Notes under the pieces: model-generated
The model's database searches: none
The model's input: the letters and a program-made list of their open reading frames with translations, nothing else
What the model was told of the DNA's origin: nothing
In this document: piece after piece, positions 54,761-64,000 of the stretch
Layout of the letters: every line of letters starts with the position of its first letter
Numbering within the stretch: position 1 is the first letter of the stretch
Program-made: the position numbers and the translations under genes
From: a bacterium
Lineage (GTDB): Bacteria; Joyebacterota; Joyebacteria; Joyebacterales; Joyebacteraceae
NCBI GenBank assembly: GCA_025774935.1
Contig: JALGZK010000008.1
Location: 17,576 to 81,575, forward strand
Direction of reading: 5' to 3'
Length of the DNA: 64,000 nucleotides

Positions 54761-54796
54761 CCCGAAGGTAGACGCCCGTGGGAATCGCGAGCAATC

Positions 54797-54818
54797 GGCT
54801 CCTCCGAAAGGGGGAGCC
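54797..54818. terminator. GNRA-loop hairpin between convergent hdrB2 and the FMN-binding gene
   Basis: Stem GGCTCCTCC, loop GAAA, stem GGGGGAGCC. It has no clear U-tract. A paralogous hairpin sits at 55708-55733. Confidence 0.35.
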
Positions 54819-54837
54819 GTCGTACGTCCGGGAGCTG

Positions 54838-55572
54838 CTACTCCGCGGTGTCCTCGACCGGAGGCTCGGTGTCGACGGGAGCATCGGTCTCCGCCGGCGT
54901 CTCTTCCGCCGGCTCCACCTCCTCCATGGGAGCGTCCTTCAGGCAGAACTCCTTGCACAGAACGACCGCCTTCGTCACTGCCGCACACGCGCTCCGGGAC
55001 GAGACCGTCGCGCCGCTCACCGCGGTGACGTTCTCCCCGATCTCGACCTCGGTCTCAGCCGTCATCCCTTCGAACTGGGTGAGGAACGTCTGGCGTTCGA
55101 TCCCCTTGCCACGTCGCTCGCCGTGCTTGAGAATCTCCACGTGCGTGACCGCGCCTTCGGAATCCAAGCCGACCAGGTAGTCGACCATGCCCCACTTCCC
55201 GGGGGCGTCGACGACGACCGCGGTCCCCAGGTCCTCGCCGTCCTTCGAGGCGTGGAAGAACAGGAAGACAGTGGTCGGTTGGTACTCGGCCGCCTCAAGC
55301 GCGACCATCGTCTCCTCGTAGTCCTCGGCCAGGGGGCAGCCCCACGCTTCCTTCTCGGCCGTCGTGAGGAGGACGTGCCTGTGCTCCTCCTCGAGCCTGA
55401 GAAGAGTCTCGGCCGAGAGCTCGTACTCCTTGGGTGTGATCGTCACGCCCTCCCCGAACGTGAGCGCCAGGGCTTCCTCGACCGTGGCGACGGTCTTCGC
55501 GTGAGAGACGCCCGAAGCCACGACCACTGCGAAGGCGAGCGCGGCAGCTGCAACGATTCCTCGCTTCGTCAT
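54838..55572 (-). CDS. Secreted FMN-binding-domain protein (ApbE substrate-like), paralogue A
   Basis: I trimmed the start to ATG 55572 (SD GGAGGTG), giving the signal MTKRGIVAAAALAFAVVVASGVSHA. It has the flavinylation-type motif TAVSGATVSS and an acidic Pro/Glu/Thr tail. Confidence 0.8.
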   Translation of the reverse strand: MTKRGIVAAAALAFAVVVASGVSHAKTVATVEEALALTFGEGVTITPKEYELSAETLLRLEEEHRHVLLTTAEKEAWGCPLAEDYEETMVALEAAEYQPTTVFLFFHASKDGEDLGTAVVVDAPGKWGMVDYLVGLDSEGAVTHVEILKHGERRGKGIERQTFLTQFEGMTAETEVEIGENVTAVSGATVSSRSACAAVTKAVVLCKEFCLKDAPMEEVEPAEETPAETDAPVDTEPPVEDTAE

Positions 55573-55585
55573 CCTGCAGCACCTC

Positions 55586-55685
55586 CTGGTGGTTTCCCGG
55601 CGGGGACCTGGCTCGGCCCCCACCCCGCTCGTGTAGAGCACATCATCTGAACCGTCGCCATTGTAGCATCGAGGTCGGCCGTCTA
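55586..55685 (-). pseudogene. Remnant of an apbE 3' end left by a tandem duplication
   Basis: The sequence is collinear with 56514-56615, the end of apbE. The encoded MLYTSGVGAEPGP matches the ApbE C-terminus VLHTSGMGTELKSP. The stop TAG (cta at 56514-56516) is CAG here. Confidence 0.55.
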
Positions 55686-55707
55686 CTCGGTGAATCTAAG
55701 AACATCA

Positions 55708-55733
55708 GCGGCTCCGCCGGAAGGGGGAGCCGC
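55708..55733 (-). terminator. Hairpin downstream of FMN-binding paralogue B
   Basis: An 8-bp stem GCGGCTCC/GGAGCCGC. It is paralogous to the hairpin at 54797-54818. Confidence 0.35.
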
Positions 55734-55750
55734 CGTGTGTCACGGACCGG

Positions 55751-56500
55751 CTACTCGCCGGTGCTCTCGGCCGGCGGCTGAGACTCCTCCGCGGCGCCTG
55801 TCTGCGACGGAGCGTCCGCCTCCGGTGGCGGCGCTGTCTCCGTGGGAGCCTCGGTCTCTTCCGGAGTGTCCTTGAGACAGAACTCCTCGCACAGGACGAC
55901 CGCTTTCGTCACGGCCGCACACGCGCTTCGAGACGAGATCGTCGCGCCGCTGACGGCGGTGATGTTCTCCATGACCTCGATCGAGGAGGTCATCCCCTCG
56001 AACTGAGTCAGGAAGGCGCGACGCTCGATTCCCTTGCCGCGTCGCTCATCATGCGCGAGGATCTCCACGCGCGTGACCGCGCCCTCGAGGTCGACCCCGA
56101 CCAGGTAGTCGACCATTCCCCACTTCCCGGGGGCGTCGACGATCACTGCGCTGCCGAGATTCTCGCCGTCCTTCGAGGCGTGGAAGAATTCGAAGCTCGT
56201 GGTCGGCTGGTACTCGAGTTCCTTGAGCTCCGCCATCGCCTCCTCGTAGTCCTCAGCGAGAGGGCACCCCCACGACTTCTTCTCGTCTGCAGTGAGGAGG
56301 GTGTGCTTGTGCTGCTCCTCCAGACTGATGAGCATTTCGGCCGTGAGTTCGTACACTTCCGGCGTGATGGTCACTCCTTCGCCGAACGTCAACGCCAGTG
56401 CCTCCTCGACGGTGGCGACGGATTTCGCGTGGGCAAAGCCCGACAGCGCGACAGCCGCGATCGTGAACGCGATGGCGGCAGCGGTTCCTCGCTTCGTCAT
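55751..56500 (-). CDS. Secreted FMN-binding-domain protein (ApbE substrate-like), paralogue B
   Basis: 249 aa with the signal MTKRGTAAAIAFTIAAVALSGFAHA, the motif TAVSGATISS and an acidic tail. By eye it is roughly three-quarters identical to paralogue A. Confidence 0.8.
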   Translation of the reverse strand: MTKRGTAAAIAFTIAAVALSGFAHAKSVATVEEALALTFGEGVTITPEVYELTAEMLISLEEQHKHTLLTADEKKSWGCPLAEDYEEAMAELKELEYQPTTSFEFFHASKDGENLGSAVIVDAPGKWGMVDYLVGVDLEGAVTRVEILAHDERRGKGIERRAFLTQFEGMTSSIEVMENITAVSGATISSRSACAAVTKAVVLCEEFCLKDTPEETEAPTETAPPPEADAPSQTGAAEESQPPAESTGE

Positions 56501-56513
56501 CCTGCTGCACCTC

Positions 56514-57626
56514 CTAGTGGTCTCCGGGCGGGGACTTGAGTTCGGTCCCCATCCCGCTCGTGTGGAGCACCTCGCCAGATACCGTCACCATTATAACCTC
56601 TAGATCAGCAAGCTGCTCGGCGAATTGCAGGCCCCTCTGAGGTCCCATCACGAACAACGCCGTGGCCCAGGCGTCGGCCATCGTCGGGTCGGGAGATATG
56701 ACGGTGATGCCGGACAGCTCTTCAGCCGGGTACCCCGTCCTGGGATCGAAGATGTGATGGTAGCGCTTCCCCTCGTGGATGAAGAACCGCTCGTAATCGC
56801 CGGAGCCCATCACTGCCGTGTCCTCGACCTCGAGGTATCCGAGAAGGCCCTCCCCCCGCGTGGCCCTGATGCCGACCTTCCAGGGGCCCCCGTCGCGCAC
56901 CCCCAGGGCGTAGATGTCGCCCCCGGCATCGATGAGAGCCTCGGTCACCCCCATCTCCTCGAGCACCCGCACACCCTCGCCGACCGCGTAGCCCTTGGCG
57001 ATCCCGCCGAGGTCGATCCTGACATCTTCCCGGGTCTTCGTGAGCGAGCCTTCTTCGAGAGTCAGGTACTCGTACCCGACTCTTTCCAGACACTCCTCGA
57101 CCTCCTGGCGCTCGGGGAGCTCCGGGGCCTCATCGTAGAAACCCCACAGCTCGATCAGGGGTGAGATGCTTACGTCGAACGCCCCGTCGGTCGAGCGAGA
57201 CATCTCGAGCGCAGGACCGACGATGCCGAGAATCTCCGTGTCGGTCACGGGGATTCCATTGTGGTTGAACGCGTGGAGGGGGCTCTCGGGGTTCAGGATG
57301 TTGAACTTGTCGTCGACCTCCTCCATCCGGTCGAGCGCGGCGTTGAGGGCGGCGACCGCGCTCTCCTCCGGACCTCGCGCGTGGATTGTGACGTAGGTCC
57401 CCATCATGAAGCGGGTCTTCTCGAATACTTCCGCCGGGGCTCCCTCGCCAACGCCTGACGTGCACGACGTGAGCACCGTGACACTCAGGGGAGCAAGCAC
57501 TATCGCGGCAACAGCGGCTCGGGCTGGTCGTCTCACGGGGATTCCCCGGCTTTGGGCCTTGTCGTGGTTGAGCGGTACCGGCGGGAACCGGATCGCGTGA
57601 CACATTCTAGCAGACTCGCACATCAA
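56514..57626 (-). CDS. apbE: FAD:protein FMN transferase ApbE (lipoprotein)
   Basis: 370 aa with lipobox-like VLTSC and ApbE blocks (FMMGTYVTI, DLGGIAKGYAV, IDAGGDIY, SGDYERF, HIFDPRTG). The start may be an internal ATG. Confidence 0.9.
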   Translation of the reverse strand: MMCESARMCHAIRFPPVPLNHDKAQSRGIPVRRPARAAVAAIVLAPLSVTVLTSCTSGVGEGAPAEVFEKTRFMMGTYVTIHARGPEESAVAALNAALDRMEEVDDKFNILNPESPLHAFNHNGIPVTDTEILGIVGPALEMSRSTDGAFDVSISPLIELWGFYDEAPELPERQEVEECLERVGYEYLTLEEGSLTKTREDVRIDLGGIAKGYAVGEGVRVLEEMGVTEALIDAGGDIYALGVRDGGPWKVGIRATRGEGLLGYLEVEDTAVMGSGDYERFFIHEGKRYHHIFDPRTGYPAEELSGITVISPDPTMADAWATALFVMGPQRGLQFAEQLADLEVIMVTVSGEVLHTSGMGTELKSPPGDH

Positions 57627-57704
57627 GGCAAATCAAAGGCCCCGAGTCCAGAGGACCCGGGGCCTTCGGTCTTCGTACATCTGTCGGCGACATCACACTA
57701 GTCG

Positions 57705-58823
57705 CTAGAACGTCGCCCTCACACCGACGTTGATGCGGCCGTACTTGAGGGCGGTCTCGTCTCCGGGCGGGTATCTGTCGCCGCTCGGATCCGTCCGCTC
57801 GGCGTCGATGGAGTCGTAGGCGAACATCACGCTGACGCCGTCCGCCGGTCGCCAGTTCGCGCCCAGCGTCCACTGCGTGTAGTTCTCGTCCATCTCGGCG
57901 CCGGCAAAGAAAAACCCGGCCCAGTTCATGTCGGTAACCGAATAGCCGCCCATCAGCTCCCACGTCGGCGTGACATCGTAGAACGCCTTCACGTACCAGC
58001 CCGAAGGCTCCCCGTCCACGTCGTCGCTGACCAGCTTCTCGTAGGTCCCGCCCAGGTACTCGCCGCGGACGTTGAACGCCGCCATGGTGTAGTCCACACC
58101 GAGGGCGTAACGGGTCATGTTGTTGCCGTCGTCGTCGTACTCCCCGTAGCCGAACGAGCCCAGGAACTTCAGGTTGCCGTTCATCAGCTCCGGCGCCGTG
58201 TGGAACATGAAGGTCCACGCGTCGTCCGTCTGACCGCTGACATCGGACGTGGGGCCGTTCGTAAGGTAGAGATACGCCGGGATCGCGTAGCCCTCGCCCT
58301 CGAAGTTCTTGTAGAACTCCACTCCCACATCGTGCCAGGAGCCGAGCCACGAGTTAGCCGAAACGACGTACGCGTTGTACTGCTCGTCCCAGAAGAGCTC
58401 GTAGCCGTAGTCCCAGCAGAACAGCGGCTTCAGGTAGCCCGCCTTCATCTCGTAGTCCGCCGGCATGTACCAGATCACCGCGGCCCTGAGAATCTCGACG
58501 TGCGCCTCGCTCGACGGGCTCCTCGTGATCTCCTCGGAGCCGAGTCTCGGCGTAGCGCCTGCCGAGAACCGGATCTCCGGCTGCGCCTCGACGGCCCAGT
58601 CGTCGGCGATCTCCCTGTAGAAGTTGAGGATCACCTGGCTCAGACCGGCCGACGCGCCGTTCTTGGAACTCGTCGTCTCGTCGTCGTACGTGATCTCACC
58701 GTCGCTCGAGTCGTAGAGGAAGAACTTGACAGTTCCGCCGACGGTCGTCTCCTGAGCGTTCACAAGCCCTGCACACATGAATACGAACATGCAGGCAGTG
58801 ACCAGGATCAGGATTGGCCTCAT
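57705..58823 (-). CDS. Outer-membrane porin-like beta-barrel protein
   Basis: I trimmed the start to ATG 58823 (SD GGGAGG), giving the signal MRPILILVTACMFVFMCAGLVNA. It has abundant alternating aromatic strands and the C-terminal INVGVRATF. Confidence 0.7.
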   Translation of the reverse strand: MRPILILVTACMFVFMCAGLVNAQETTVGGTVKFFLYDSSDGEITYDDETTSSKNGASAGLSQVILNFYREIADDWAVEAQPEIRFSAGATPRLGSEEITRSPSSEAHVEILRAAVIWYMPADYEMKAGYLKPLFCWDYGYELFWDEQYNAYVVSANSWLGSWHDVGVEFYKNFEGEGYAIPAYLYLTNGPTSDVSGQTDDAWTFMFHTAPELMNGNLKFLGSFGYGEYDDDGNNMTRYALGVDYTMAAFNVRGEYLGGTYEKLVSDDVDGEPSGWYVKAFYDVTPTWELMGGYSVTDMNWAGFFFAGAEMDENYTQWTLGANWRPADGVSVMFAYDSIDAERTDPSGDRYPPGDETALKYGRINVGVRATF

Positions 58824-58923
58824 ACCTTTACCTCCCTGCTGTGTCCGTCTTGGTCGAAACAATCGATCCGCACTGCTTCCGGTCCGATCCACCTCCTTCC
58901 CCGGCTGAAAGCCGTGCTCCAGT

Positions 58924-60165
58924 TCACTTGTGCTGCGTTGAGCGATCCGCGCTACCGCCGCCCCCGGCTACCCGGGCATCCGCCCCGGCAGACTCGAGGT
59001 ACAGCGCGGCGATGAGGTCCGTGAGAAGGGGAACGAAGTCACGGACGCCCCGGAGCTTCTTCAGGTTCCGCACACGAAACGTGTCAACAACGGTCTCCCA
59101 GAATGTCGGAATCGCGAGCCACGCCTCTGAGAGGACCGCCGCTACATCGTGGACGGGAATACCAAAAACCCTCAGCGGTGACAAGAGTTTTGTTACTCCA
59201 TGTGTCATGTCCGCCGGAGAGGTCGTTCGCACCCAGAGCGCACTTGCCATCATGAGCAAGAGTATCCTCGTGGCATAGAGCGCTCCCGTGAGGATCCCTT
59301 CCCGCGTGATCCGGACAGCACCAATTCTGACAATCACCTCCGCGCCGTCGTTGAAGAGGACCGGCAGGAGAAACGCGACCGCGAGCAGGAAGAGGTACCG
59401 CCTCATCCTTGACAGTAAGTACACGGGGGACGCGCCGGAGACGGCACCCAGGGCGAGGAGTGCGATGAGGATCCCGATGTAGAGGCGGGTCTCCGTGAAG
59501 ACGAGGACCACGATCGCGAGGACGACGATAGCGGCGACCTTGACGACGGACGGCGTGCGGTGCAGGACGGACTCGCCCGGCGCGTAGTCCCTCGGGGAGA
59601 AGGACCCGATGTCTCCGGTCGCGTGGACCGTCCCCGCCTCCTCCGCGTGGGCGTCCCGGATCCGAAGGCAGACGTTACCCGCGACGATGCCGGTCACCCA
59701 GCCCGTGACGACGGCGCCGATCACGAGCCACGGGTAGAAGATGAAGATGCCCGGATGTCTCACGAGAAGGATGTAGGCCAGGAGGAGCTGGACGGTGTTG
59801 TGGGCGATCGCCCCGACGACGCTCACGCTCACGATCGACAGCCGGGTCCGGGGAAGGGAGAGGACGACCCAGTAGACCGCGCCCATCACGAGTGTGCTCG
59901 CGATCCCGGCAGAGAAGCTCAGGATGAACCCGGGCGCCATGAACGTCCCGATGATGAACGAGCTCAGGATGGTCCGGAGGATCGTGATCTGGAGAGCGTA
60001 GCCGAACCCGTACGTGACGAGTGCGATCAACGTGAGCGTGTTGGCGAGACCCAGCCGCAAGCCGGGGATGGGATGCGGGAGAAGCGACTCCGCGATCTGG
60101 AGCACGCACGCCACGGCCACCAGGAGCGCGAGCCTGCGTGTCTTCGTGTCGGTGTGCTGTTCCAT
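58924..60165 (-). CDS. Fusion membrane protein: Gx-transporter (heptaprenyl-diphosphate-synthase-component-I-like) domain + EcfT/CbiQ-like domain
   Basis: 413 aa. The N-terminal half, LLVAVACVLQIAESLLPHPIPGLRLGLANTLTLIAL..., resembles the PF07456-type Gx family. The C-terminal half has EcfT-like helices and an Arg-rich coupling region. This is recognised by eye only. Confidence 0.65.
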   Translation of the reverse strand: MEQHTDTKTRRLALLVAVACVLQIAESLLPHPIPGLRLGLANTLTLIALVTYGFGYALQITILRTILSSFIIGTFMAPGFILSFSAGIASTLVMGAVYWVVLSLPRTRLSIVSVSVVGAIAHNTVQLLLAYILLVRHPGIFIFYPWLVIGAVVTGWVTGIVAGNVCLRIRDAHAEEAGTVHATGDIGSFSPRDYAPGESVLHRTPSVVKVAAIVVLAIVVLVFTETRLYIGILIALLALGAVSGASPVYLLSRMRRYLFLLAVAFLLPVLFNDGAEVIVRIGAVRITREGILTGALYATRILLLMMASALWVRTTSPADMTHGVTKLLSPLRVFGIPVHDVAAVLSEAWLAIPTFWETVVDTFRVRNLKKLRGVRDFVPLLTDLIAALYLESAGADARVAGGGGSADRSTQHK

Positions 60166-60190
60166 CCCACTCCCGCGCCGGGGCCCGTCC

Positions 60191-60643
60191 TCACCGCACG
60201 ATGGCGTCGAGGAACGGGGGTTCCTCCGACTCGATCGTGACCAGGGTCTTGTTGGGAACGCAGGCGATCACCTGCCTGGGACGCCGGATCCACCCGCCGT
60301 TGACGCAGATCTGCTGGGGGCAGTCCGAGGCGAGAACCCGGATCGCGCCCTCTTTGACCTCGAGCCTCACTGATGAGCCCGGCAGCTCGACGACGCGGTC
60401 GACATCGAGACCGATGGTCTCTACGAGAGCCTCGCCCTCGTAGACCTTCGCTACGGCGGGACCGGCGGCCTCCCTGCTCTGGGCCCGTCCGACCCGGATG
60501 ATCGCCGCCGTGGCCAGGACGAGCACCACGGCGATGAGGACCACGTCGGCCACCGAAGGCCGGAAGAACCGGGGATTGTCGAAGGGATCACGCCTCATGG
60601 CGGGAGGGTCCTCGCGGCCCGTGCGGGTCAGTGCCGCTCTCAT
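60191..60643 (-). CDS. NusG domain II-containing membrane-anchored protein
   Basis: 150 aa with one TM helix, followed by VYEGEALVETIGLD...LEVKEGAIRVLASDCPQQICVNGGWI...ACVPNK, typical of the NusG_II family. The start may be the ATG at 60598. Confidence 0.75.
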   Translation of the reverse strand: MRAALTRTGREDPPAMRRDPFDNPRFFRPSVADVVLIAVVLVLATAAIIRVGRAQSREAAGPAVAKVYEGEALVETIGLDVDRVVELPGSSVRLEVKEGAIRVLASDCPQQICVNGGWIRRPRQVIACVPNKTLVTIESEEPPFLDAIVR

Positions 60644-60665
60644 CGGGCCTGAGGCCGCGGGGCCG

Positions 60666-61673
60666 CTACGTCAGCCCGGACGTCGCGAAGCCTCTCTCGA
60701 GCACGAAGTCCGCGAGCCCGAGGAGGCTCACCTTGTACTGCGACTCCGCGAGCACGTCCAGGCTCTTCTTCGCGGACTCCACGTAGGCTATGGCGGTGTC
60801 CTGCGTCTTCCGGGCGGCGCCCGAGGAGAGGAGCTTCTCCCGGATGACCCCGAGCGCATCCTCTCCGGACCGCGAGTCCAAGAGGGCCGCGAGCGCCTGT
60901 CGCTCGTCCTCAGGGACGAACTCCCAGAGAACGAGGATCGGCAGGGTCGCCTCTCCTGCCGCGATGTCCTGCCCGGGCTCCTTCCCCATCCGCACCTCGT
61001 CGCCGATGAGATCGAGGTAGTCGTCGACGATCTGGAATGAGACCCCGAGGCTCAACCCGTAGTCGCCGAGGCCACCGCGGAACTGCTCGTCCTCGCTTCC
61101 GAGCGACGCGCCAACCTGCGCGGACGCGGCGAAGAGCGCGGCCGTCTTCTTTTCGACGATGTGGACGTAGCGCTCCATCGAGAGCTCGAGGTTCTTTCGC
61201 TCCCAGATCTGCAGGAGCTGTCCCTCGCACATCGACTTGGTCGCCGCGCTCATGCAGCGGACAATGCTCGAATCGTCACACCGGGAGATGAGCTCGAACG
61301 CGACGGAGTAAAGGTAGTCGCCGAGCGCGATCGAGACGTCGTCCCCCCACTTCATGTTGATCGTTGGGTTGTGGTGGCGGAGGCGGGCGTTGTCGACGAC
61401 GTCGTCGTGGAGGAGCGACGCCATGTGGATGAGCTCGACGGCGCACGCGAGGTCGACCATGTGCTCGCCGCAGGACGCCGGGCTCGCACCGCCCGACGCC
61501 TTCGCAGAGAGGAGCACGAGCGCCGGCCGGACCCGCTTGCCGCCCGACTCGAGTACGTAGCGTCCGACCTCGCTCATCGATGTGTCGGCGGTGGCAGTCA
61601 GGCACTCGTGGAGAACCGACTCCACCGTGTCGAGGTCCTCGCGCACGGGTGCGTAGATCCGCTCGAGCTCCAT
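60666..61673 (-). CDS. Long-chain trans-polyprenyl diphosphate synthase (IspB/HepT-like)
   Basis: 335 aa with FARM LLHDDVVDNARLR, SARM FQIVDDYLDL and KEPGQDI. Confidence 0.9.
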   Translation of the reverse strand: MELERIYAPVREDLDTVESVLHECLTATADTSMSEVGRYVLESGGKRVRPALVLLSAKASGGASPASCGEHMVDLACAVELIHMASLLHDDVVDNARLRHHNPTINMKWGDDVSIALGDYLYSVAFELISRCDDSSIVRCMSAATKSMCEGQLLQIWERKNLELSMERYVHIVEKKTAALFAASAQVGASLGSEDEQFRGGLGDYGLSLGVSFQIVDDYLDLIGDEVRMGKEPGQDIAAGEATLPILVLWEFVPEDERQALAALLDSRSGEDALGVIREKLLSSGAARKTQDTAIAYVESAKKSLDVLAESQYKVSLLGLADFVLERGFATSGLT

Positions 61674-61694
61674 TCCCTCCCCTTCCGCCCGGGA

Positions 61695-62147
61695 TCAGAA
61701 GTAGTCCAGCGCCTTGATCTTCTTGAGCTGGATCTCGTCGCGCTCTTCCATGCGAACGAGACTGTCGAAGAGATCCTTCACGTCGGGATCGATGTCCTGC
61801 TGCGCCACCTGCTTGTAGATCGAGATCAGGCACTCGTCGAGCTCGATCGCGATGTCGAGCACGTCCTCTGCCGTGGCGTCGGGATCGAGCGTCCGTCCCG
61901 CGAAGCGATCGCACTCCGAGGAGACCGGCTCGTATCGGATGGGGAGCACCGAGATTCGCTTGTACGTGTCGCCGGGGAACCTCGACAGCGCCTGCTGCAG
62001 GCGCCGCCGGTGCCGCGCCATGTAGTCCGTGAGGAGCCTGACTCCCTCGCGGTGCGTCTGCTCCGCGAGGCTCAGGTAGTAGTCCATCAGCAGGCACTCG
62101 AAGTCGGACGCTCGCCTCAGGACGCAGGCAACGGTCGTGACCGACAT
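61695..62147 (-). CDS. Hypothetical helical protein
   Basis: 150-aa ORF with host-like GC3 bias, packed between nqrF and the polyprenyl synthase gene. I recognised no family. Confidence 0.5.
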   Translation of the reverse strand: MSVTTVACVLRRASDFECLLMDYYLSLAEQTHREGVRLLTDYMARHRRRLQQALSRFPGDTYKRISVLPIRYEPVSSECDRFAGRTLDPDATAEDVLDIAIELDECLISIYKQVAQQDIDPDVKDLFDSLVRMEERDEIQLKKIKALDYF

Positions 62148-62158
62148 CAGACCCTCCT

Positions 62159-63253
62159 CTAGAACTCGTCGTAGAAGATGTCTTTGCCCTTGAGACCCTT
62201 GTCATCGAGGACCTTCATCACGGCCTCGATCATCGGAGGAGGTCCGCACAGGAACGCCTGCCGGTTCTCCCCGTTCTTGTCGATGTGCTTGTCGACCGAC
62301 AGGTGGATGAACCCGGTCTCCCCGTCCCACTCCTCGTCCTCGCCCAGGGGGTCGGAGAGCGCGTAGATGACCTTGAAGTTCGGGTGCTTACCAGCGAGCT
62401 CCTTGAACTCGTCGAGGTAGAAGACGTCCTGCGTCGTCCGCGCGCCGAAGAAGAGCCACAGCTTCCTGTCGGGCCAGCGGTCGTAGACGGTGTAGATGAT
62501 GTTCTTCATCGGCGCCATGCCGCAGCCGCCGCCGACGCAGATGATCTCGACCTCCGGGTCCTCGTTCAGTCGGAACTCGCCGTACGGGCCGGTGAAGATC
62601 ACGGGGTCATCGACCGAGAGGTTGTGGCAGTACGTCGAGCCGATGCCGCCCGGGACGAGCCTCACGATGAGCTCGACGTCGTTCATCTCGTACGAGGGCG
62701 AGCTGATCGAGTACGCGCGGTAGACCGGTCCCTCGGGAGAGGGAGCCTGAAGCTGGACGTACTGGCCGGGGCGCTGCTCGATCTCGGCGGGCTCGTTCAG
62801 TCTGAAGTTGACCTCGACGATGTCGTGCGTGAGCGCCTGCGTTCTCGAGACGTTCGCAGAGAACATCTTGACGTTCAGGATCTCTTCCGGGACCTTGATC
62901 CTGATGTCCTCGCGGATCTTCACCTGACACGCGAGGCGCACGCCCTGCCGCACCTGAACGCGCGTGAGGAACGGGGTCTCGGTCGGGAGGACCGGTCCGC
63001 CGCCCGCGAGAACCGTGACCTTACAGTGCCCGCACGACCCTCGCCCACCGCACGCCGAGGGTATGAAGACCTTGACCTCGTTCAGTGCCGACAGCAGCGT
63101 CTGCCCGCCGTCGACCTCGAACTCACGGTCGCCGGCGTTGATGTCGAGCTTGCAGACGCCGTAGTTGATGAGGACGCGCTCCGCCACTGTCAGGGCGATC
63201 GTGAGCCCGACCAGGAGTCCGCCGAAGACGAGTATCGGAAGAAGGAAGACCAT
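62159..63253 (-). CDS. nqrF: Na+-translocating NADH:quinone oxidoreductase subunit F
   Basis: 364 aa with an N-terminal TM helix, a 2Fe-2S ferredoxin motif (CGGRGSCGHCKV...LACQ), an FAD motif (RAYSISS) and an NAD-binding motif (GGGCGMAPM). Confidence 0.9.
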   Translation of the reverse strand: MVFLLPILVFGGLLVGLTIALTVAERVLINYGVCKLDINAGDREFEVDGGQTLLSALNEVKVFIPSACGGRGSCGHCKVTVLAGGGPVLPTETPFLTRVQVRQGVRLACQVKIREDIRIKVPEEILNVKMFSANVSRTQALTHDIVEVNFRLNEPAEIEQRPGQYVQLQAPSPEGPVYRAYSISSPSYEMNDVELIVRLVPGGIGSTYCHNLSVDDPVIFTGPYGEFRLNEDPEVEIICVGGGCGMAPMKNIIYTVYDRWPDRKLWLFFGARTTQDVFYLDEFKELAGKHPNFKVIYALSDPLGEDEEWDGETGFIHLSVDKHIDKNGENRQAFLCGPPPMIEAVMKVLDDKGLKGKDIFYDEF

Positions 63254-63260
63254 CGTTCCC

Positions 63261-63851
63261 CTACTGGATCCTCACCATTCCTGCGAAGCCCATGAAAGCC
63301 ATCGCCATCACGCCCGTGATGATCATCGCGATCGCGACGCCCCGGAACGGAACGGGCACGTCTGAGTAGCGCATCTTCTGCCTGAGCCCCGCGATCAGGA
63401 CGATTGCGAGCGTCCACCCTATTCCGCCGCCGAAGCCGAACGCAATCGACTGCCAGAACGTGTACTCGCGAATGATCATGAAGAGCGAAACACCCAGAAT
63501 CGCGCAGTTCACCGTGATGAGCGGGAGGAAGATGCCGAGAGCGTGGTAGAGCCCGAGGCTGAACCGCTCGACGAACATCTCCACGAACTGTACGAACGCG
63601 GCGATGACCGCGATGAAGACGATGAACGAGAGATACGTGAGCCCGAACGGAACGAGCACGTGGTGGTAGATGCCGTAGTTGATCGCCGTCGTGGCCGTCA
63701 TGACGAAGATGACGGCAGCGCCCAGCCCGGCCGCGGTCTCGATCTGCTTCGAGACGGCGAGAAACGAACACATCCCCAGGAAGTTCGCGAGCAGGATGTT
63801 GTTCGTGAATATGGCCGCGATCAGGATGACGAACGGCGAGAGCTCGCTCAT
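63261..63851 (-). CDS. nqrE: Na+-translocating NADH:quinone oxidoreductase subunit E
   Basis: 196 aa and polytopic, with NqrE/RnfA-type blocks NNILLANFLGMC and ITVNCAILG. It lies adjacent to nqrF. Confidence 0.88.
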   Translation of the reverse strand: MSELSPFVILIAAIFTNNILLANFLGMCSFLAVSKQIETAAGLGAAVIFVMTATTAINYGIYHHVLVPFGLTYLSFIVFIAVIAAFVQFVEMFVERFSLGLYHALGIFLPLITVNCAILGVSLFMIIREYTFWQSIAFGFGGGIGWTLAIVLIAGLRQKMRYSDVPVPFRGVAIAMIITGVMAMAFMGFAGMVRIQ

Positions 63852-64000
63852 GGCTGAGTCCCCTCATCCTCCTCGTTCGCGCCGGAGAGTGCGTTGAAGA
63901 GCGCGATCAGGAACCCGAGAGCGACGAACGCGCCGGGCGCCAGGATCGCGAGCTGGTTCGGAACGTACCACTCGGGCATGACGACGTGCCCGAAGACCGT
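63848..64000 (-). CDS. nqrD: NqrD C-terminal fragment (5' end lies outside the window)
   Basis: The frame is open to the window edge. The translation ends ...LAILAPGAFVALGFLIALFNALSGANEEDEGTQP. The stop TGA overlaps the nqrE ATG (ATGA). Confidence 0.75.
   Translation of the reverse strand, partial: TVFGHVVMPEWYVPNQLAILAPGAFVALGFLIALFNALSGANEEDEGTQP

Follow-up and report, generated by a model that had tools for sequence, protein, structure and literature searches.

The 64,000-nucleotide (nt) stretch of contig JALGZK010000008.1 analyzed here (the window) ends in a minus-strand gene string in which genes of an NQR-type NADH dehydrogenase and a polyprenyl synthase (PPS) stand beside a five-gene cassette. 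The cassette codes for a NusG_II protein, a Gx::EcfT fusion, a porin, an ApbE flavin transferase, and FMN_bind (flavin mononucleotide-binding) proteins. Our results indicate that this cassette, with its own porin, keeps its gene order across phyla. Export of flavin adenine dinucleotide (FAD) and flavinylation by ApbE are well supported as its predicted functions. A wider model, in which cofactor supply is combined with the export of electrons by periplasmic flavoproteins through small molecules and the porin, seems to us evenly poised between right and wrong. In the genome of the window (G000), cofactor supply is the stronger half of this claim and the electron-transfer role the weaker half.

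An earlier note on this DNA, made from the letters alone, had listed the genes of the string, and every one of them was found on the minus strand in the open reading frame (ORF) listing and by Pfam and NCBIfam scans of the ORFs, from which the domain identities given below are taken. The hidden Markov model (HMM) searches that it proposed, with PF04205, PF02424, PF07456, PF02361, and PF07009, all matched the expected genes. Along the minus strand the order is nqrD-E-F, a gene for a 150-amino-acid (aa) protein, the polyprenyl synthase gene, NusG_II, Gx::EcfT, porin, ApbE, and two FMN_bind genes. The rest of nqrD and the genes nqrC, nqrB, and nqrA lie past the window end on the same contig.

Conservation of the cassette across phyla

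The full five-gene order NusG_II, Gx::EcfT, porin, ApbE, FMN_bind found in the window is shared by uncultured diderm bacteria of the Desulfobacterota, Omnitrophota, and unnamed metagenome lineages. The comparison covered 106 porin loci, obtained by a porin-profile scan of genome and metagenome collections together with loci already collected; some contigs are duplicated between collections, so the locus counts are not independent. ApbE was downstream of the porin in 68 of the 74 loci with enough sequence, and FMN_bind in 60 of 60 loci. Upstream of the porin were Gx::EcfT (51/59 loci) and NusG_II (51/56 loci). Compared with cassettes in metagenome-assembled genomes (MAGs) of Desulfobacterales, the window proteins showed about 50% identity for Gx::EcfT, 58-60% for ApbE, 31-38% for FMN_bind, and, along its whole length, 32-36% for the porin against the Desulfobacterota porin at the same cassette position (E about 1e-50). 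The earlier note had considered that relatives might show the genes dispersed, with only the nqr-apbE linkage conserved. This is not the case, and the five-gene block, porin included, is ordered across phyla.

The neighborhood of the cassette falls into several types. In 20 of the 44 long loci (Desulfobacterota), it lies amid genes for a HAMP-sigma54 activator, an 8-haem cytochrome, a cytochrome b with a 3-haem partner, and an OmcA/MtrC-like 10-haem cytochrome. Another 11 long loci are nqr-linked, and 8 of these are complete nqr(A)BCDEF-UbiA-PPS-cassette arrays. The other 13 carry neither nqr nor cytochromes, two of them being Omnitrophota-type loci. The window belongs to the nqr-linked type, with its rubrerythrin-like 150-aa gene in the slot where the related arrays carry the UbiA prenyltransferase.

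A further gene tracks these types. Aq_1264_TM (precomputed Pfam PF27139) is a four-helix membrane protein of about 150 aa with one invariant His. It was present in 21 of the 24 non-cytochrome long loci and in 0 of the 20 cytochrome loci. That Aq_1264_TM and the cytochrome module exclude each other suggests a shared role for them, and Aq_1264_TM is a candidate inner-membrane electron-transfer partner. One or the other was present in 41 of the 44 long loci. Separately, in one Nqr-type relative a gene about 1.2 kb downstream of the cassette (L174 12430-13164) codes for a membrane iron-sulfur protein of the NapH-like Fer4_5 kind; NapH-like Fer4_5 proteins are one published class of transmembrane electron-transfer proteins linked to flavinylation.

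Predicted FAD export and flavinylation

In Listeria, EetB (PF07456), an energy-coupling factor (ECF) S-like protein, acts with the ECF-T-like FmnA and with EcfA/A' to export FAD for the extracytosolic ApbE (FmnB), and both EetB and FmnA are required for this export (Rivera-Lugo et al., 2023; PMC9973259). EetA is labelled PF07009 (NusG_II) in Data Set S1 of the same study, in which 3,328 genomes had eetB colocalized with eetA and 2,169 genomes had it colocalized with apbE (PMC9973259). The NusG_II protein of the window is therefore EetA and its Gx domain EetB, fused to an FmnA-like ECF-T. By this mapping the string encodes DmkB-like, EetA, EetB::FmnA, FmnB, and PplA-like functions. The parallel with the flavin-based extracellular electron transfer (EET) locus of Listeria that the earlier note had drawn is thus borne out, and it is stronger than had been claimed. 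The fusion itself is common, with no fewer than 219 homologues of full length (about 50% identity), whose only names are 'Gx transporter family protein' or 'heptaprenyl diphosphate synthase'. In G000, a separate housekeeping EcfT is encoded on contig C16, and a tandem pair of candidate EcfA/A'-like ATPases lies at C14:170477-172083 (298 and 176 bits to TIGR04520, both under the cut-off of 315).

The ApbE, Gx, and NusG_II genes of the cassette are the only ones in the genome. A second locus, rnfCDGEAB-UbiA-(249-aa ORF)-radical SAM-RseC on C21 (100.7-109.6 kb; L063), is without all three. Since ApbE is unique in the genome, it must also serve NqrB/NqrC and the RnfD/RnfG of C21. The Gx gene was present in 31 of 31 genomes of the phylum that were examined. 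Outside this genus and one other it is unfused and lies inside an rnfCDGEAB-UbiA-ApbE-radical SAM-NusG_II-Gx-RseC cluster, and the genomes with that arrangement had no porin and no free FMN_bind protein.

An IQ-TREE phylogeny of 80 ApbE sequences placed all cassette ApbEs, the window's included, in one clade (100/100), and the rnf-linked ApbEs of the phylum's other genera in a separate clade (100/100). The window's genus was nested among metagenome cassette loci. Nqr-linked loci stood on several deep branches, and cytochrome-linked loci made up essentially one derived clade. The tree is most simply read as lateral gain of the cassette by the genus, which is probable, followed by loss of the ancestral flavinylation genes linked to rnf.

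Secreted flavoproteins and porin

The motifs AVSGATVSS and AVSGATISS reported for the two FMN-binding proteins are indeed present. Within them, S184-G185-A186-T187 is invariant in 19 family members, and Thr187 (numbering of protein 2) is the predicted flavinylation residue. The signals are of the signal peptidase I (SPI) type as described, judged by eye to be cleaved after AHA and SHA, each before K, and contain no lipobox Cys. Two other features have a narrower distribution than was thought. The four Cys described as conserved are common only to the two paralogues; in the alignment, the nearest relatives have Tyr at two of these positions, and the wider family has none of the four Cys. The acidic, Pro/Glu/Thr-rich tails are present but limited to the clade of the window, which also has a 17-residue insert (WGCPLAEDYEE...). 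FMN_bind proteins of the type found in G001, another genome of the genus (L016 11941-12657; L065 3411-4121), have a His/Asp-rich tail, DEHGAACDHDAKDGHDAHDDH..., in place of the Pro/Glu/Thr-rich one, and Desulfobacterota and Omnitrophota members have no tail. A structural model based on the 19-sequence alignment (pLDDT, a predicted score for the local distance difference test, 78) has an RnfG/NqrC-like folded part and a disordered tail; its best PDB matches are RnfG (7zc6_G and 9eri_G), then NqrC.

The two FMN_bind genes arose by a tandem duplication spanning window positions 54796-56573, with units about 913-934 nt apart. The paralogues are about 70% identical in amino acids and 80-86% in nucleotides (70-88% when taken segment by segment), and the direct repeat also copied the 3' end of apbE (55613-55644 versus 56542-56573). 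In the sister genomes the gene is single-copy.

The AlphaFold model of the porin shows a barrel of 16 strands with a helical loop inside. Its best PDB matches are OprP 2o4v (E 2e-13), OprO, Omp32, and DcaP, and there is a weak sequence match to OprO. An MtrB-type sheath was ruled out by these fold matches, which have an inner loop. Judging from the model, the porin is probably a small-molecule diffusion pore, not a sheath for redox proteins, and is probably anion-selective. Its family is small: at E<=1e-30 it comprises 73 clusters out of 1.84 billion representatives, and every one is named 'hypothetical'. Sequence identity to OprP, OprO, and DcaP is only about 13%, the likeness to these phosphate and pyrophosphate porins (OprP/OprO) and to DcaP lying in the fold and in the agreeing Pfam Porin_O_P match. 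Most family members have an N-terminal coiled coil, as DcaP does, whereas the window's copy has none. A flavin-attachment-like motif in the porin was also considered; it reads ITRSGSA in Desulfobacterota and ITRSPSS in the window copy, is not conserved here, and was set aside.

NQR-type pump and quinone-tail genes

Together with the genes beyond the window end, all six subunits NqrA-F are present, with NqrF in the place of RnfB and with equivalog scores slightly below the curated cut-offs (for NqrF against TIGR01941, 275 bits, cut-off 295). In Pfam scans, NqrC matched FMN_bind, NqrB matched NQR2_RnfD_RnfE, and NqrA has NQRA domains. At the predicted flavinylation site, NqrC has the canonical DAISGAT and NqrB a variant, DAVASAT. 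According to a 2025 review, NqrA carries no cofactor (PMC12174285). The NqrA found here (L002 4768-6165 = C27:83767-85164, minus strand) differs from that of Na+-NQR in keeping both CxxCxxCxxxCP 4Fe-4S motifs of RnfC, with Fer4 Pfam matches, even though it also scores as NQRA_2nd and NQRA_SLBB. Its counterpart in related loci (L153, L112) still has an RnfC_N and a weak Complex1_51K domain. These NqrF-bearing pumps, to judge from their domains, look like RNF/NQR intermediates. A 304-aa ORF upstream of nqrA had no family match and a wrong-frame-like composition, and was treated as spurious.

The polyprenyl synthase had been called long-chain, and its motif IHMASLLHDDVVD, with small residues ahead of the first DDxxD as in long-chain enzymes, agrees with this. 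One other polyprenyl synthase, 32% identical, is encoded on C22. A polyprenyl synthase gene occupies the equivalent place in 9 related long loci. No UbiA/DmkA gene was found at this locus, and UbiA homologues are on C21 and C32. The 150-aa rubrerythrin-like protein is 79-92% conserved in the two other members of the genus (G001 and G002) and is kept only within this genus; no diiron ExxH motifs are evident in it by eye.

Proposed electron route and its alternatives

Taken together, the string appears to join a respiratory input module, the RNF/NQR-family NADH dehydrogenase, to a five-gene cassette that was probably acquired laterally. The polyprenyl synthase beside the pump, presumably the only long-chain prenyl-diphosphate synthase of the genome, would make the quinone tail. 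EetA and EetB::FmnA, driven by EcfA/A'-type ATPases encoded elsewhere, would export FAD to the periplasm, where the lipoprotein ApbE would use it to link FMN covalently to Thr in the SGAT site of the two secreted RnfG/NqrC-like proteins. The flavinylated proteins might then serve as soluble periplasmic electron carriers that reduce small anionic acceptors or shuttles, such as free flavins, chelated metals, or quinone-like compounds, and the reduced molecules could cross the outer membrane through the OprP/O-like diffusion porin of the cassette. The biochemical steps are inferred, most of all the direction in which the electrons flow and the donor they come from. The electron-export half of the model draws on comparative evidence, namely the strict linkage of porin, ApbE, and FMN_bind, and the joining of the cassette either to NADH dehydrogenase and quinone genes, which mirrors the Listeria locus, or to EET-type cytochromes.

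Several observations weigh against electron export in G000. The genome has no Aq_1264_TM by tblastn or by a custom HMM run against all ORFs of at least 70 aa, and tblastn found no OmcA/MtrC-like, cytochrome b, or 8-haem homologue in it. No CxxCH-rich ORF adjoins the locus; the few multihaem ORFs of the genome are all on other contigs. With both membrane partners missing, no electron input can be named for the two flavoproteins. The locus also has no Ndh2 and no NapH-, PepSY-, MsrQ-, or DsbD-like gene. The sister genome G001 has lost the porin and kept the rest, that is, the string from nqr to a single FMN_bind gene, while G002 has porin-ApbE-FMN_bind. Of the canonical Dxx(s/t)gA(T/S) motif, the flavoproteins lack the Asp, position -6 being Ala, Gly, or Thr across the family. 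The porin model is of moderate confidence, with a pLDDT of 74 for the best model and 51-62 for the other four. In the gap between the porin and apbE genes, a consensus scan found a 16-bp, 11-GC hairpin (57668-57634) with a weak T tail, followed by a TTGCCT-16-TAGAAT promoter-like site. These putative elements could act in attenuation, or could give apbE and the flavoprotein genes a separate transcription start. The earlier note had proposed an extracytosolic flavoprotein conduit; the likeness to Listeria, the kept gene order, and the EET neighborhood in Desulfobacterota speak for it, and the absence here of Ndh2, DmkA, and a membrane partner speaks against it. The G000 copy is a reduced variant, without the Aq_1264_TM partner, the ubiA gene, and the regulators of its relatives, and it may be partly vestigial.

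A more general proposal can be put forward only tentatively, and we think it may well be wrong: the secreted, covalently flavinylated RnfG-like protein and the OprP/O-like porin would form a haem-free respiratory electron route across the diderm outer membrane, in which a small flavin-type shuttle is charged in the periplasm and leaves by the pore. The inputs of such a route would be interchangeable: in one form NQR, a dedicated quinone, and Aq_1264_TM, in the other cytochrome b and multihaem cytochromes. The form linked to NQR would be the older one, and its pump, combining NqrF with an NqrA/RnfC that has kept its Fe-S clusters, a surviving RNF-to-NQR intermediate.

The alternative that fares best is that the cassette is kept only for FAD export and for flavinylation of the Nqr and Rnf complexes, the porin and FMN_bind proteins being leftovers with no part in electron export. 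As the only ApbE and the only FAD exporter of the genome are in the cassette, Nqr/Rnf maturation alone would suffice to retain part of it. Gone from the C21 rnf locus are ApbE, NusG_II, and Gx, which the other genera of the phylum keep there, and in Clostridia eetB is often found beside rnf for such maturation (PMC9973259). The missing porin of G001 and the lack of both Aq_1264_TM and a cytochrome partner in G000 fit as well. Against this, FMN_bind is kept in 3 of 3 genomes of the genus and duplicated here, with intact frames and strong Shine-Dalgarno sites; its SGAT site is invariant; porin, ApbE, and FMN_bind occur together in all 60 loci; and the porins of G000 and G002 share 86% identity, which fits selection. 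We consider this explanation unlikely.

Less likely still is a periplasmic reductase with an assimilatory or protective, non-respiratory function, in which the porin would admit a nutrient or a toxic compound for the flavoproteins to reduce, for instance Fe(III) chelates in the service of iron uptake. Many ApbE-associated clusters are tied to iron assimilation (PMC8238504), and the His/Asp-rich tails of the G001-type FMN_bind proteins look metal-binding. However, the locus contains no iron-transport gene, and no Fur-box-like site was found in the window with the E. coli consensus. Linkage of the cassette to a full NADH dehydrogenase and quinone-tail synthesis or, in relatives, to OmcA/MtrC-like cytochromes is instead a sign of high-flux respiration.

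The flavinylated protein might also act in envelope redox sensing, reporting the redox state of porin-admitted compounds to a membrane kinase or sigma-54 activator. Two-component or HAMP-sigma54 regulators flank the cassette in 32 of the 44 long loci. There is also a minimal, exporter-free module (L073 9217-14629, from an Omnitrophota MAG; L102) that consists of just a response regulator, a coiled-coil porin, ApbE, FMN_bind, a HAMP kinase, and a second response regulator, which suggests a sensing use of the same core. At the window locus, however, there is no adjoining kinase, receiver, or sigma-54 activator, and the promoter scan found no sigma-54 promoter near it. Regulators next to an operon most simply control that operon, and sensing seems highly improbable. 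Finally, a physical gate, in which the flavoprotein or its acidic tail would insert into the porin and pass electrons directly as a flavin analogue of MtrAB, is scarcely credible despite the strict co-occurrence of porin and FMN_bind and the disordered tails of about 40 residues that could span the membrane in this clade, since the OprP/O-type pore, with 16 strands and an inner loop, is far smaller than the sheath of 26 strands that MtrB forms, the fold matches do not include MtrB, and most family members have no tail.

Layout of the locus

The positions of the genes are given in Table 1. Apart from three longer ones, intergenic gaps measure 4-31 nt; the exceptions separate porin from apbE (168 nt), Gx::EcfT from porin (up to 100 nt), and one FMN_bind gene from the other (178 nt). 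The starts chosen here have strong Shine-Dalgarno sites, AGGAGGTG, ahead of them, and those of the flavoprotein and porin genes are of the AGGAGG type. For ApbE the most likely start is GTG 57536, with a GGGGA Shine-Dalgarno site, which gives a protein of 340 aa, the same length as its relatives. No Rfam family, flavin riboswitches included, was matched. A few short sequence words of the locus occurred in one metatranscriptome.

Table 1. Features of the gene string in the window, and examples of Aq_1264_TM in related loci (TM, transmembrane)
Feature	Position	Strand	Evidence or remark
nqrD (RnfE-like), 3' end	63848-64000	-	Full gene L002 2424-3098; Pfam Rnf-Nqr E 5e-58
nqrE, RnfA-like membrane subunit	63261-63851	-	PF02508 E 6e-57; TIGR01940 233.9 bits, cut-off 247.6
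nqrF: N-terminal TM helix, 2Fe-2S ferredoxin, FAD, and NADH domains	62159-63253	-	Fer2, FAD_binding_6, NAD_binding_1
150-aa helical rubrerythrin/ferritin-like protein	61695-62147	-	Weak PF02915, E 7e-5, 23.7 bits
Long-chain polyprenyl diphosphate synthase (DmkB/HepT/IspB-like)	60666-61673	-	PF00348 E 1e-66
EetA homologue, single-pass NusG_II protein	60191-60643	-	PF07009 E 2e-22
EetB::FmnA (Gx::EcfT) fusion, 413 aa	58924-60165	-	PF07456 residues 15-163; PF02361 residues 198-360
Outer-membrane porin	57705-58823	-	Porin_4 32.8 bits, Porin_O_P 23.6 bits, both above cut-off
Putative hairpin and promoter-like site	57604-57668	-	Consensus scan only
ApbE/FmnB FAD:protein FMN transferase, lipoprotein (lipobox LTSC)	56514-57536	-	PF02424 E 8e-84
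Secreted FMN-binding protein 2	55751-56500	-	PF04205, FMN_bind E 3e-11
Secreted FMN-binding protein 1	54838-55572	-	PF04205, FMN_bind E 6e-12; tandem paralogue of protein 2
Aq_1264_TM examples	L173 12911-13363; L174 11260-11739; L066 1994-2452		Precomputed Pfam PF27139

Implications

Flavin-based EET is established in Gram-positive bacteria, and the known electron export of diderms uses multihaem cytochromes threaded through large barrels. The cassette bundles a FAD exporter, a flavin transferase, and a secreted flavoprotein with a small porin of its own, and its recurrence beside NADH dehydrogenase and quinone genes or surface cytochromes points to a modular outward route in sediment bacteria. 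Such a route would bear on the delivery of flavins to surface cytochromes. Its parts are open to assay, namely a flavoprotein of about 170 residues, a porin of 370-420 residues, and, in relatives, a His-bearing membrane partner of 150 residues. In this organism, one cassette, probably acquired laterally, is the predicted source of flavin cofactors for both ion-pumping redox complexes.

Comparison with known systems

Flavinylation-based extracytosolic electron transfer as such is known. What is undescribed in the literature that we searched, which left out many subscription papers, is the porin-linked diderm cassette, its interchangeable inputs, and the reduced NQR-linked copy; no description of a porin/ApbE/FMN_bind cassette was found there. 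The Light-laboratory papers do not mention a porin, and ApbE does not figure in a paper about the EET conduits of syntrophic sulfate reducers. A related proposal concerns the Gram-negative Ca. Effluviviacota, in whose MAGs DmkAB, EetAB, FmnAB, and PplA-like genes were inferred in 2024, with Nqr/Rnf discussed as inputs (PMC11323493). It includes no porin, fixed cassette, or cytochrome-linked version.

The EET locus of Listeria monocytogenes (DmkA, DmkB, Ndh2, EetA, EetB, FmnA, FmnB, PplA) has in common with the window a DmkB-like polyprenyl synthase, EetA, EetB, an FmnA-like ECF-T, ApbE/FmnB, an FMN_bind substrate, and an NADH dehydrogenase. The window differs in its diderm host and dedicated porin, in the fusion of EetB and FmnA, and in a six-subunit NQR-type pump instead of Ndh2. 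In addition, DmkA/UbiA is not encoded at the window locus, though it is in related Nqr-type loci. PplA is a two-domain lipoprotein. The window flavoproteins are unlike it, as had been stated, with one FMN_bind domain each, SPI secretion without a lipobox Cys, and an RnfG-like full-length fold, and are functional analogues at most. The operational marker of EET in the published catalogue is the membrane-bound type II NADH dehydrogenase Ndh2 (K03885), and by its rules the cluster belongs to 'NQR' rather than 'EET', NqrF being present and Ndh2 absent (Meheust et al., 2021).

Maturation clusters of the type rnf/nqr-apbE-eetA-eetB have been reported in 572 Clostridia genomes (Rivera-Lugo et al., 2023; PMC9973259). 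They resemble the window in encoding the FAD exporter and ApbE beside a flavinylated pump, to which the window adds the porin and the free-standing secreted flavoproteins. The rnf clusters of the phylum's other genera match this Clostridia-type arrangement, and their ApbE belongs to a different clade from that of the window.

In Shewanella, Bfe, a MATE-type transporter, exports FAD, which is processed in the periplasm, and the flavins serve MtrC/OmcA. Common to that route and the one proposed here would be the export of FAD to the periplasm and small flavins crossing the outer membrane. The window's exporter is of the ECF type rather than MATE, and a covalent flavoprotein and a dedicated porin are added. 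OmcA/MtrC-like surface cytochromes, another likeness, are encoded beside the cassette in Desulfobacterota relatives; the window genome has neither an MtrAB-type sheath nor an OmcA-like cytochrome. Compared with the porin-cytochrome conduits (MtrCAB, Geobacter Pcc/Ext, OetABI), the window has a 16-strand OprP/O-type porin and no cytochrome anywhere in its 64,000 nt, whereas the Desulfobacterota version of the cassette has the porin gene between those for periplasmic and surface redox proteins.

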